Positions 2,923 to 49,032 of a DNA stretch of 51,669 nt are shown piece after piece. Position 1 is the stretch's first letter, and the number at the start of each line of letters is the position of its first letter. A program made the position numbers and the translations under genes. A model generated the notes under the pieces. It made no database searches, was not told the DNA's origin, and saw only the letters and a program-made list of their open reading frames with translations. The DNA is taken from positions 1 through 51,669 of the IMG/VR virus record IMGVR_UViG_3300011270_000003; one strand, written 5' to 3'. This DNA is from a virus. Its lineage: Duplodnaviria; Caudoviricetes.

Positions 2923-3041
2923 ATTTCGCTAGACCTACAAAAATAATCAGGTCTTCAGGAAAAGGAAGAAAGAAAAGAATTAAAGTTATCTTCAGATATT
3001 CCAGGGATTGGTTTAAAGTTCCTATTTACGAGGTAATGTAA
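2883..3041 (+). CDS. Small basic hypothetical protein (52 aa)
   Basis: GGAG RBS and ATG at 2883; TAATG coupling to the next ORF. Confidence 0.6.
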   Translation: MSKRKHTYEWRYLDFARPTKIIRSSGKGRKKRIKVIFRYSRDWFKVPIYEVM

Positions 3042-42609: not shown

Positions 42610-43049
42610 GCAGCATTAACCCTTACTACTGTATGCAAGCTAACAAAGGCACGCATTGTTCTCTCAGTCAAGACGCAAGCAATAGACAACAGTGTGCGAC
42701 CTGTCATGACTATGAGCGTGAGCAAGCTGCTGATAAGGCTAGTCTATATGCTAAGAAGAATCTTTCATCTCCCATGGATCAAGATCCCTTAGCGATAATA
42801 GCCAATATATGTCTTTCACTCACCTATGGTGAGATGATTGAATTAGGTAAACAAATCTACAGTTGGTCTACTACTGAAGTAAGTGGTAAACCAATCAATG
42901 AAGAAGCTTTAGTTAAACTAATACATGAATGGAGTAAGAATTATGGGATGGATAATAACGTTAGTAGTAATAGCAACGCTCTTACCAATACTGTGTCTAT
43001 TATTGATGATCTTATTGAGTCCGAAGAACGAACAGGTGGAAGCTCCTAA
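42606..43049 (+). CDS. Early hypothetical protein
   Basis: ATGA coupling; N-terminal Cys cluster. Confidence 0.7.
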   Translation: MSSINPYYCMQANKGTHCSLSQDASNRQQCATCHDYEREQAADKASLYAKKNLSSPMDQDPLAIIANICLSLTYGEMIELGKQIYSWSTTEVSGKPINEEALVKLIHEWSKNYGMDNNVSSNSNALTNTVSIIDDLIESEERTGGSS

Positions 43050-43070
43050 GCCATATGGAAGCAATCAACA

Positions 43071-43304
43071 ATGGCAAGATCAAGACCACAAAAAGGACAC
43101 TACGTAAACATCTCTGGTAAAGGGAACTATACTATCACCAGAGTCTTCTGGGACGAAGGAGAACAGATATGTGTCATAGAAAATATGTGTCCTCCGGATA
43201 ATATAGAACCAGAGAGACATCGTAGAATATCTGCTGACATAATGGAAAGAACTAGGAAGTTCTGGCCTGAAGGTGGTTGGTTAGTCGATGGAGATTATAT
43301 CTAG
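43071..43304 (+). CDS. Early hypothetical protein
   Basis: 77 aa ORF. Confidence 0.65.
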   Translation: MARSRPQKGHYVNISGKGNYTITRVFWDEGEQICVIENMCPPDNIEPERHRRISADIMERTRKFWPEGGWLVDGDYI

Positions 43305-43352
43305 ATTATTTACATAAGTTGCAATAAAACCTACGATAAGAAGCTCTGACTC

Positions 43353-43380
43353 TTGACTTAACTATCTACTATGTTATAAT
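43353..43380 (+). promoter_or_regulatory. Sigma70 promoter
   Basis: TTGACT-16 nt-TATAAT with TGn. Confidence 0.8.
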
Positions 43381-43401
43381 ATTGACAATGGGAGAAGCAA
43401 G

Positions 43402-43575
43402 ATGGGTAAAGCAAGCAGACTGAAGTGGGAAGATATGTTGGATCATAGATGTCCTACTTGTTCATCCAGTCAGGGTTTCATGTGTGTTAATCCTGATGGC
43501 CTGGCAGTTAAGTACGTTCATCCAGAAAGGTTCAAACTCTATGAGCAAGAACAAGACAGACGAAAACAAGACTGA
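43402..43575 (+). CDS. Small zinc-finger protein (57 aa; CPTC..C..HPER)
   Basis: GGGAG RBS just after the promoter; not in the ORF track. Confidence 0.7.
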   Translation: MGKASRLKWEDMLDHRCPTCSSSQGFMCVNPDGLAVKYVHPERFKLYEQEQDRRKQD

Positions 43576-43687
43576 AGGTCTAATCTTAGGAACAGTTTCT
43601 CCTGAAAAGGAATGGTTGAAACAGAATCCTTCAAAGAAAGACAAACCAAATGTCCAAAAGAAGGAGACCAGTAAAACAAGCAAGTAG
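43541..43687 (+). CDS. Small Lys-rich hypothetical protein
   Basis: AAGGT RBS; overlaps both neighbours. Confidence 0.4.
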   Translation: MSKNKTDENKTEGLILGTVSPEKEWLKQNPSKKDKPNVQKKETSKTSK

Positions 43688-44422: not shown

Positions 44423-44499
44423 GCCCATATAGGCCAATCGGTAGAGTCAGGGGACTTAAAATCCCCACAGTGTCAGTTCGAGTCTGACTATGGGCACCA
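44423..44499 (+). tRNA. tRNA-Leu(UAA) with a short variable loop and encoded CCA
   Basis: Acceptor GCCCATA/TATGGGC, anticodon arm GGGGA-CTTAAAA-TCCCC, T arm GTCAG-TTCGAGT-CTGAC, ACCA end. Confidence 0.92.
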
Positions 44500-46505: not shown

Positions 46506-46733
46506 GCTTGAGGGCCGTTACCTGTGTAACCAATGCAGTGCAGACACAGGTCTGGGTAACCAGATTATAGAGCTGCATTTCAAATCAGGTCTACTTATAG
46601 GAGAGTGGTAGCCGTCTATCACTACCACTCTCCGGCTACTTATAAGCGGACACTATAGGGACCGAGGTCAGGCAATTACAGACCAAGGGTAACACTTTGC
46701 CTTATAGTGTCCACCTATAAGCAGGAGTCTAAT

Positions 46734-47453
46734 ATGTTAGAAATGTTCAAGCCGAAACAGACAACTATTCAAACATTGGACATGAGATCTCCTGCTGAGA
46801 TTAACTGGCATAAGTTAGGAGCTAAGCCATCATCTGCATGGTGGAAACTTGCAGAAAGAGAATGGCGAATTGAAGGCATGTATTGTACTCCTGACATCAG
46901 TACAATTGAAGATAACATGTATAATCTTCTATTCGTATGTGATGCTTTAATACAAGGAGAAAAGAAATTTAAACAGATAGAAGACAACTGCATCTTAGTA
47001 GCTAATTGTTTTACAGTTAACAACTTCGAATTCTGGTCTAAGGATTTAGGGACTGAAACGTTCCCCATTCCTTTAGAAACAGACAAGAAAGCTGTATTCG
47101 AAGAATGGGCTGATCTTAATACTAGTAGGTTAGCTCAACCTGCTAAGATCAAAGGACAATTATTAGCAGTCAGAGGAAATACTTTAATTTCTCTTGACAA
47201 AGACTATTCAAATACTATAATATATGAACGTAAGAAAGTACATATACACATACCTAATAGACAAATACATTATCTGGACAATGGTCACACAGATATTAAG
47301 ATGTGTGACATGGGTATGTGGGTATGGATGTATGTTGGAATACCTGCCTATTGGTCTGATATAATTGACATTGGATTTAGGTGTAAACCTGTCACGATTT
47401 ATAAGTCAAAAGCAATGATGAAGGAGCCATATTATTACTTCCCGACTAGTTGA
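46734..47453 (+). CDS. Gamma-glutamylcyclotransferase-like protein (degenerate)
   Basis: LLFVCDALIQG (compare LFVYGTLxxG), IKGQLLAV, LISLD, YERKKV, WMYV. Confidence 0.6.
   Translation: MLEMFKPKQTTIQTLDMRSPAEINWHKLGAKPSSAWWKLAEREWRIEGMYCTPDISTIEDNMYNLLFVCDALIQGEKKFKQIEDNCILVANCFTVNNFEFWSKDLGTETFPIPLETDKKAVFEEWADLNTSRLAQPAKIKGQLLAVRGNTLISLDKDYSNTIIYERKKVHIHIPNRQIHYLDNGHTDIKMCDMGMWVWMYVGIPAYWSDIIDIGFRCKPVTIYKSKAMMKEPYYYFPTS
47194..47221 (+). promoter_or_regulatory. Internal sigma70 promoter upstream of primase
   Basis: Perfect TTGACA-16 nt-TATAAT inside a CDS. Confidence 0.75.
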
Positions 47454-49005
47454 AGTTCACATTCCATGTGAAGTCTGTGGTAGTTCTGATGCTAAGTCTA
47501 CCTTTGATGATGGACATGGGTTTTGTTTTTCATGTAATCATTATTTTCCGCCATTAACCTCTCCTTCAACCAAGGAGTTTACCTATGAATATTGTCCATG
47601 GCGTGGCGTCAATGCGGAAACTTTCCGCTTCTATGACGTCAAAACTAAGATCGATTCCGACGGTAAGCCGGTCTCGATTGGCTATCGCTATCCGAACGGT
47701 AGCTACAAAGTTAGACAGCTTGGCAGCAAAGATTTCTCCAGCCTAGGAGAGATTAGCAAAGCAGGTCTATTCGGATCAGATAAGTTCAACGCTGGTCAAC
47801 ATAAATATGTGACCATCACCGAAGGAGAACAAGATGCGTGTTCCCTTTACCAAGTACTACATCAACCTGTGGTTTCTATCCAGTCTGCTGTTACTAGCGT
47901 ACGTGATTGCACAGCATGTAGATCCTGGCTTAGTAGCTTCGATCGAATCTACCTCTGTTTCGACAGCGATGCAGTGGGGCGAGAAGCTACAGCAGCAGTT
48001 TCTAAGCTTTTCGACTATGGCAAAGTCTTTGATGTAAAACTAACATCAAGGAAAGATGCCAATGAATACCTTCAGAATGGTGAAGGTGAAGTACTCAGGA
48101 ACACATGGTTTAATTCCCGCAAATACTTGCCCGAGACCATAGTCTCTTCCTTCGACGACTTCAAAACTATTCTGAAAGGTAAAGTACGACACGGTATCCC
48201 CTATCCGTTCCCTACCTTAACCGAAAAGACGTATGGAATACGAACAGGGGAAATCGTTCTAATCACTGCTCCTGAAGGAGTAGGTAAGACTGAATTAATG
48301 TACAACCTCGAACATCATTTGTTAAAGGTAACAGATGATAACATAGGATGTATTCTCCATGAAGAAAGCCCTAGAAGGCACCTCCAAGCTATTGCTGGAC
48401 TTGAGCTCCAAAGACCCGCGCACCTTCCCGACAGCGGTCTCGAAGAAGATGAAATCTTTTCTGCTGTCTCCAAGGTTATTCGCATGGATGAGCGGTTGTA
48501 CCTTCATTCTAGCTTTGGGGGCGACTCTGCAGAGACACTCTGCGACACTATTAGGTTTCTCGTTTCTGCCTGTGGCTGTCGTTTTATTCTTTTCGGTAAC
48601 ATTTGCATGGCCATTCCTCTCTTGGCGGGAGAGAATGAAAGACAAGCTCTCGACCAAATCTCTACCAGATTAGAGATGATGGTCAAGGAATTAGATTTTG
48701 GATTAATAGTAGTAAGCCATGTCAATGATTTTGGACAAACAAGAAGCAGTAGGGCCATTGGGAAAGTATCCGATATTAGGATCGATCTTTCTCGCGATGT
48801 TACACAAGGAAGCAGAGAAACTTACATCACAGTCTCTAAAAATAGGTACTGCGGTAAAACAGGATCAGCAGGCATACTTACGTTTGATCCTGGAACATAT
48901 ACTCTATCAGAATTAAAAGCTGATAACGATAATGAAGTTCAGACGTCATCACAACAACAAAGGTCTTCGCCAGATAAGACGTGGGAAGACATACGAGCAG
49001 CTTAA
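47434..49005 (+). CDS. T7 gp4-like primase-helicase (ATT start)
   Basis: Zinc ribbon HIPCEVCGSSDA..GFCFSC, TOPRIM TEGEQDA..CFDSD..KDANEYL, Walker A APEGVGKT, VVSH and KNRYCG; frame open from 47422. Confidence 0.93.
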   Translation: MTSRLVEVHIPCEVCGSSDAKSTFDDGHGFCFSCNHYFPPLTSPSTKEFTYEYCPWRGVNAETFRFYDVKTKIDSDGKPVSIGYRYPNGSYKVRQLGSKDFSSLGEISKAGLFGSDKFNAGQHKYVTITEGEQDACSLYQVLHQPVVSIQSAVTSVRDCTACRSWLSSFDRIYLCFDSDAVGREATAAVSKLFDYGKVFDVKLTSRKDANEYLQNGEGEVLRNTWFNSRKYLPETIVSSFDDFKTILKGKVRHGIPYPFPTLTEKTYGIRTGEIVLITAPEGVGKTELMYNLEHHLLKVTDDNIGCILHEESPRRHLQAIAGLELQRPAHLPDSGLEEDEIFSAVSKVIRMDERLYLHSSFGGDSAETLCDTIRFLVSACGCRFILFGNICMAIPLLAGENERQALDQISTRLEMMVKELDFGLIVVSHVNDFGQTRSSRAIGKVSDIRIDLSRDVTQGSRETYITVSKNRYCGKTGSAGILTFDPGTYTLSELKADNDNEVQTSSQQQRSSPDKTWEDIRAA

Positions 49006-49032
49006 ACATATTATTAGAAGGTTGAGGGGGAA

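Follow-up and report, generated by a model that had tools for sequence, protein, structure and literature searches.

A putative AUU start codon, set on tyrosine codons of an overlapping gene, for the primase-helicase of an uncultured soil phage

Where does translation of a phage replication gene begin when its reading frame offers no canonical start codon ahead of its first conserved domain? The question is raised by the IMG/VR record IMGVR_UViG_3300011270_000003, a complete phage genome of 51,669 bp with direct terminal repeats that originates from soil metagenomes and whose whole length is referred to here as the window. Its primase-helicase gene lies in an open frame of 527 codons, which follows two in-frame TGA codons (47416-47421) and ends at 49005. 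Judged by comparison with its relatives, the gene quite probably begins at an AUU codon, at 47434 or else at 47431, behind the Shine-Dalgarno (SD)-like hexamer AAGGAG, which would give a product of 523 or 524 amino acids (aa). The ATT at 47434, corresponding to the 523-aa product, is most likely the favoured start, with the ATT at 47431 as an alternative or second site.

By its primase and helicase domains, the product of this 51.7-kb phage is a T7 gp4-like primase-helicase. The open frame leads into H-I-P-C-E-V-C, with the first zinc Cys codon at 47467, and carries a Cys4 zinc ribbon (Cys at residues 16, 19, 35 and 38 of the open frame, the numbering used for all residues below), to which Pfam Zn_Ribbon_Prim aligns over residues 13-39 with 21.7 bits, just below its 23-bit cut-off. 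Pfam Toprim_2 covers residues 132-217 (33.4 bits, cut-off 22.1), a Pfam Toprim match begins at residue 131, and DnaB_C covers residues 258-453 (34 bits, cut-off 27); a Walker A motif, G-x-G-K-T, is seen in the translation of the helicase part, and PHROG 239 'DNA primase/helicase' matches residues 12-514 with an E value of 8e-113. The closest isolated phages found by tblastn were those with the primase/helicases of Pelagibacter, Sinorhizobium and Rhizobium phages, at 30-39% identity, and megablast of 46700-49010 against isolated phages returned no match.

The codons after TGA TGA read AGG AGC CAT ATT ATT ACT TCC. An initial annotation, made from the letters of the window, had given these bases, the AAGGAG at 47421-47426 and a gap of 7 nucleotides (nt) to the ATT at 47434, all of which proved exact when the sequence was read again. 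It had also stated that no ATG, GTG or TTG stands in the primase frame between TGA TGA and the GTG at 47809, and the ORF (open reading frame) calls agree, with none between the stop and the zinc ribbon. This GTG is residue 130 of the open frame, and the ORF that it opens (47809..49005) encodes 398 aa. A start there would lose the zinc ribbon and the N-terminal part of the primase domain, the protein then beginning at the TOPRIM edge; the earlier statement that this start deletes the zinc ribbon therefore stands, whereas the statement that it cuts TOPRIM does not, as Pfam Toprim begins at residues 131/132 and the GTG lies at 130. The window has 31 stop-to-stop frames that reach 150 codons, and in the primase frame alone does the first canonical start lie more than 52 codons in (129). 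Recoding of TGA in the style of genetic codes 4 or 25, which would open the frame further upstream, was rejected, since TGA ends 10 of the 44 gene calls and an in-frame TAA is found at 47362. The stretch upstream of TGA TGA is, in addition, a conserved upstream gene read in another frame, which counts against recoding as well.

Relatives were gathered by a protein-guided scan of IMG/VR, which yielded 57 loci, and by a scan of JGI and other metagenomes, from which 80 of 149 relatives were kept. The window's own clade (91-96% protein identity) consists of five haplotypes from separate assemblies, namely the window itself, L002 with L062, L003 with L060, L061 and L064, L004 (which has Ns), and L007 with L059. 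The arrangement of TGA TGA, AAGGAG and ATT ATT ACT TCC is common to the five haplotypes; ATT ATT is intact in four of them, and L004 has the second ATT but an N in the first (ANT). A DNA-pattern scan of the IMG/VR viral contigs for further clade members recovered the same 4 contigs and no new ones. Within the clade, 22 of the 355 nt at 47454-47808 are variable (6.2%), 14 of these sites being at third codon positions, compared with 134 of the 1092 nt after 47809 (12.3%), so that conservation is highest in just the part which the canonical start removes. Of the first 125 amino acids of the primase, 114-120 are identical within the clade, and the four zinc Cys are kept in all five haplotypes. This pattern of variation shows the N-terminal 125 codons to be under purifying selection and hence, by implication, translated.

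The alignment of start regions in related phages, which the initial annotation had proposed as a check, revealed that ATT ATT behind AAGGAG is kept in the clade and that homologues have ATG at that place. These homologues are 55-63% identical. In L032, L055, L056 and L025, an M-T-S start lies 11 codons before the first Cys, the same as ATT 47434-ACT-TCC in the window, and L068, L069 and L077 have ATG ATG at 13 and 12 codons before the first Cys, the ATT ATT of the window being at 12 and 11. The codon at 47428-47430 varies in the clade between CAT, CTT and CGT, which means His, Leu or Arg in the primase frame and a silent Pro in the frame of the upstream gene; a change that is radical in the one and silent in the other fits a primase coding sequence (CDS) that starts after this codon. 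Eight codons lie between the stops and a conserved pattern (hydrophobic, Val, x, x, His-Ile-Pro-Cys), and the only good near-cognates of ATG among them are the ATTs at 47431 and 47434. An SD of at least 5 bases precedes five genes of the window, at spacings of 6, 7, 6, 6 and 12 nt. The RNA of the start region (47385-47500) was no more structured than shuffled sequence (z +1.27). Because the N-terminus is selected, homologues carry their ATG at this position and the SD spacing is suitable, an AUU start at 47434 or 47431 is the best reading, and the claim that the gene begins at ATT behind AAGGAG is well supported by the comparison with clade and homologues.

Several observations weigh on the other side. 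SD use in this genome is moderate, with any 4-mer before 19 of the 44 gene calls and a 5-mer before 5 of the 44, and AAGGAG is a frequent Lys-Glu word, present in 41 copies on both strands or about 0.4 per kb per strand. A rough estimate puts the chance of AAGGAG within a given 7-nt range at about 0.3%, which is suggestive rather than compelling, and the hexamer alone is weak evidence. The same ATT ATT also occurs upstream of a true ATG in the relatives L068, L074, L079, L032 and L106; the ATTs are thus dictated by the Tyr codons of the upstream gene and seen ahead of true ATGs, so that their presence is not selected for initiation as such. The clade is moreover shallow, with at most about 8% protein divergence, and conservation of the ATTs within it therefore carries little statistical weight. 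None of the runs listed as holding the stretch is an RNA run.

The origin of the two ATTs can be read from the upstream gene, for which no family was found in Pfam, PHROGs or ESM Atlas; the 'GGCT-like' label that the initial annotation had attached to it has no support in these collections. The gene ends in ...K-E-P-Y-Y-Y-F-P-T-S-stop, and its last 20 nt are shared with the primase gene as proposed. Almost all relatives have it in front of the primase gene, with its stop 7-37 nt before the zinc Cys and inside or beside the primase start, and it may be a functional partner of the primase-helicase. The bases of TGA TGA, when read in the frame of this gene (47415-47420), are ATG ATG (Met-Met); they belong to the upstream gene and have no SD of their own. 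Because the primase start sits on the upstream TAT TAT TAC, read one base later, it reads ATT ATT ACT. Among 61 distinct C-termini of the upstream protein, the Y-Y-x-aromatic motif has Tyr at its first position in 54 and at its second in 56, a variable third position, and Phe, Tyr or Trp at its fourth in 55; the tail after it is 3 residues long in the window's clade, compared with the usual 6-12. As a separate observation, the C-terminal region of the upstream protein, W-M-Y-V-G-I-P-x-Y-W ... Y-Y-x-[FY], is kept across the whole family.

This arrangement allows the cost of an ATG to be considered for each site. At 47431, an ATG would put Asp in place of the conserved second Tyr (56/61); at 47434, it would put Asp at the variable third position only, where Asp occurs in 1/61 and Glu in 5/61. 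The proposal that the overlap forces ATT was for this reason upheld in part only, given that an ATG at 47434 would hit just the variable third residue of the motif. The overlap appears to explain in part where the ATT comes from, and it would narrow the options without forbidding ATG. Persistence of ATT could reflect selection for weak initiation, constraint or lack of time, which the five shallow haplotypes do not separate. The coordinates of these features are collected in Table 1.

Table 1. Positions in the window of the proposed primase-helicase start and of the elements around it
Feature	Position	Strand	Remark
Upstream gene, no known family	46707..47453	+	Start GTG 46707, or ATG 46734 as in the ESM Atlas record
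Two in-frame TGA stops closing the primase frame upstream	47416..47421	+	Invariant in the 5 clade haplotypes
AAGGAG, SD-like hexamer	47421..47426	+	Lys-Glu codons of the upstream gene; invariant in the clade
TAT TAT TAC TTC	47430..47441	+	Y-Y-Y-F codons of the upstream gene; +1 reading is ATT ATT ACT
First ATT, putative alternative start	47431..47433	+	SD spacing 4 nt; position of the second ATG of the L068/L069/L077 doublet
Second ATT, putative favoured start	47434..47436	+	SD spacing 7 nt; position of the ATG in M-T-S homologues
Primase-helicase CDS as proposed	47434..49005	+	523 aa + stop; zinc ribbon, TOPRIM, DnaB-like helicase domain
Zinc-ribbon Cys codons, C-x2-C ... C-x2-C	47467..47535	+	From the translation
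GTG, first canonical codon in frame	47809..47811	+	No SD before it; start of the public gene calls

The default worry for a single metagenome contig is an assembly or sequencing error, by which a true ATG or an indel has been misread, and the initial annotation had named it as a possible refutation. No evidence supporting it was found. Logan contigs from 3 possible source runs are identical to the window over 47200-47700, and those from a fourth run, holding an L007-like relative, differ at 15 positions, none of them at 47431-47436, and have no indel; with five haplotypes and the contigs of 4 runs in agreement at the site, there is virtually no chance that the ATTs are an error. The same annotation had also considered that the protein could be made by frameshifting out of the upstream gene. 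In such a programmed +1 frameshift, ribosomes from the upstream gene, or ones starting at the ATG ATG of 47415-47420, would slip within 47422-47453 and produce a fusion or an M-M-K-E product, and several features seem to invite it: the upstream frame overlaps the primase frame and runs one base behind it, the ATG ATG stands just 5' of AAGGAG, and in prfB an SD-like element 3 nt before the slip codon stimulates a +1 shift. However, the frame relation between the upstream gene and the primase is 0, +1 and +2 in 4, 17 and 30 of 51 rows compared (two of them with doubtful upstream ORFs); the upstream gene ends at a stop of its own in every one of these rows, and none shows a natural fusion. Relatives with a separate ATG for the primase also have Y-Y-x-aromatic as the conserved C-terminus of the upstream protein. 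Neither a slippery nor a hungry codon is present, clade members disagree in stop context (AGT TGA A versus AGT TAA T), the ATG ATG lacks a preceding SD, and the primase-frame pattern is kept back to 47446, which confines a shift to about 25 nt without a slip motif; transcriptional slippage is unlikely too, the longest homopolymer being 4 nt. With a frame relation that varies and no conserved slip site, frameshifting is not borne out, and we regard it as extremely improbable.

Two further possibilities place the start downstream of the ATT ATT. Ribosomes might re-initiate without an SD at another non-canonical codon, mainly the Ile ATT at 47461-47463, which lies 2 codons before the zinc ribbon and 8 nt past the upstream UGA. 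This would be in keeping with the rule in the family that the upstream stop overlaps or nearly abuts the primase start, and about half of second-cistron initiation can be re-initiation in E. coli reporters (PMC3592434). The ATT at 47461 is, however, the conserved Ile of H-I-P-C, for which homologues use ATT, ATC or ATA, indicating that it is kept as an amino acid and not as a start; no SD precedes it, and the family pattern extends over the five preceding residues in every haplotype and homologue, so that these appear to be translated, which leaves a start at 47461 improbable. The gene could otherwise be N-terminally defective in this clade, its only product starting from GTG 47809 or later and comprising TOPRIM and helicase without the zinc ribbon. 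All 15 members of the public protein cluster are indeed called at 329-398 aa, and T7 makes a zinc-ribbon-less gp4B from an internal start. Against a defect, conservation is higher over the 125 codons ahead of GTG 47809 than in the remainder, with changes mostly at third positions, no stop breaks the frame, the zinc Cys are all kept, and the GTG has no SD; truncated calls are, moreover, what is expected of software that accepts ATG, GTG and TTG only. A defective gene is thus very improbable.

If initiation takes place at the AUU behind AAGGAG, the 30S subunit would be placed by this hexamer on an unstructured stretch and fMet-tRNA would pair with AUU, initiation being presumably weaker than at AUG and open to discrimination by initiation factor 3 (IF3). 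Re-initiation by ribosomes that have reached the end of the upstream gene (UGA 47451-47453, 17 nt beyond the AUU) may also occur, and such coupling would partly offset the weak codon; the strong SD and the open structure would also compensate for it in part. As to origin, the ancestral SD and ATG may have been lost through a deletion, with AAGGAG and ATT recruited afterwards, a course that is plausible and perhaps likely. AUU is a proven bacterial start (infC, pcnB), although its strength depends on the system: it reached about 1-3% of AUG in one set of reporters (bioRxiv 10.1101/063800) and lay 6-8 times below AUG in another (PMC3592434). Context matters, infC being well expressed despite its AUU, and low temperature, nutrient limitation and guanosine tetraphosphate (ppGpp) all make non-AUG starts poorer competitors (PMC5499595). 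In the sigR-rsrA pair of Streptomyces, IF3-dependent repression of a non-canonical start sets the protein ratios (PMC5472188). By analogy with these cases, the primase-helicase would be made at a reduced, IF3-sensitive level, and deliberate down-tuning of the enzyme via IF3 is possible. The ATTs are the +1 reading of conserved Tyr codons, so that ATT is partly a by-product of the overlap, which qualifies the down-tuning reading.

Weak starts were also considered across the family, for which the start was defined as the canonical codon lying furthest downstream, provided that it follows every in-frame stop and precedes the first Cys by at least 9 codons. The 70 distinct full-length family proteins start with ATG in 43 cases, TTG in 13 and GTG in 6, and 8 have none of these; the resulting 27/70 without ATG are an observation rather than an enrichment test, as they were not matched with the start usage of other genes in these phages. 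In a quick IQ-TREE tree, the 8 rows without a canonical start form two clades, the window's (5 rows) and that of L041, L046 and L058, each with 100% support in the Shimodaira-Hasegawa-like approximate likelihood-ratio test (SH-aLRT). In the latter clade (2970-3040; also L135), GGAGGA is followed by 4 nt, an in-frame TAA that ends the upstream gene, and then ACG, a candidate start or termination-reinitiation site at the place in the alignment where L010 and L106 start with ATG or TTG. The best tree has two losses of the canonical start, while the well-supported branches alone need only one; the difference in both codon and position between the two clades argues for separate losses. Recurrent weak starts in the primase family would fit either tolerance of low initiation or selection for it. 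The further proposal that weak, IF3-discriminated starts of the primase-helicase are selected and recurrent in this family of ~50-kb soil phages (AUU; ACG after UAA; UUG or GUG in 19/70), and so act as a translational throttle, is in our view unlikely. If true, such a throttle would act jointly with the overlap, which is nearly universal, and would set how much helicase-primase is made relative to a co-translated neighbour, or would tie replication to the translational state of the host (IF3 level, ppGpp, temperature).

Among described systems, E. coli infC and pcnB come closest in the nature of the start, with an AUU behind an SD, no canonical alternative and an expectation of reduced, IF3-sensitive initiation, and infC is closely coupled to its preceding gene (bioRxiv 10.1101/063800, PMC3592434 and PMC5499595). 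In the window, likewise, no canonical start is found upstream of the selected coding sequence, and the AUU stands at SD distance and is kept in a shallow clade. Unlike infC and pcnB, the phage gene encodes a replication enzyme and its product is not IF3, which removes any autoregulatory logic; its AUU lies inside an overlapping gene, as the +1 reading of Tyr codons, and its start is a prediction from sequence. The GTC start of Streptomyces sigR, repressed by IF3, offers another parallel, being a conserved non-canonical start in a coupled gene pair, but there the codon and the organism differ and the regulation is experimental, where that of the phage primase is inferred (PMC5472188).

In architecture, the window's protein resembles that of T7 gene 4 (gp4A/gp4B), with zinc ribbon, TOPRIM and DnaB-like helicase, and differs from it in that the window primase is at most ~39% identical to any isolated phage. 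The H-I-P-C entry to the zinc ribbon, about 12-16 residues from the N-terminus, is likewise shared with T7 gp4. T7 gene 4 uses ATG plus a second, internal start for gp4B; a gp4B-like internal in-frame start with an SD after the zinc ribbon was looked for in the window's gene and none was found, the first canonical codon being the GTG at residue 130, without SD. With +1 frameshifting of the prfB type, the locus shares an SD-like element and an overlapping +1 frame ending in UGA; a mechanism of this type was rejected for want of a slip codon and of a conserved stop context, and because the relatives differ in frame relation. A search of the literature on ATT/AUU starts in phage or primase genes, with supplementary files outside its scope, brought up no description of this case, and it did not confirm an internal AUU start in T4 gene 26.

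The consequences for databases are already visible. The exact 398-aa product from GTG 47809 is present in a public protein collection, and its 90% cluster (window 47809-49002) holds 15 members of 329-398 aa, as against ~523, none of which is full length and two of which are named 'twinkle protein'. Because gene finders take only ATG, GTG and TTG, the public calls lose the zinc ribbon and the N-terminal primase subdomain, and an intact essential enzyme thus looks truncated, or like a helicase without primase. The start at AUU would add a well-supported natural AUU-start gene in the replication module of an uncultured soil phage clade, and one for which the structural reason is clear, as the AUU lies on the Tyr codons of an overlapping gene. 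The ATG, GTG, TTG, ATT and ACG found in this family would also constitute a natural series on which start strength, SD strength and coupling can be set against the dose of a replisome protein.

A tRNA scan for a special initiator tRNA showed that the phage has tRNA-Leu(TAA) only; this single gene is located at 44423-44499 on the + strand, in the region of the replication module. A scan of 185,579 species genomes for a prophage or host gave as its sole match L139, a 3,650-bp contig, 53% identical, in a metagenome-assembled genome labelled Thaumarchaeota; this is probably a phage contig binned by mistake and is uninformative on the host. A perfect sigma-70 consensus, TTGACA-16 nt-TATAAT, is found on the + strand at 47194-47221, inside the upstream gene and ~210 nt 5' of the primase start. 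It is present in the window and in L007, whereas L002, L003 and L062 have another -10 hexamer. This promoter, if it is active, would provide a primase transcript without translation of the upstream gene, and hence without coupling. A second perfect TTGACA-16-TATAAT occurs on the - strand at 40460-40433, in the divergent intergenic region between the structural and the replication block, and an 11/12 promoter match lies on the + strand at 43353-43380, within the gap of 43049-43650. By these matches, the phage seems to rely on host promoters of the sigma-70 type.

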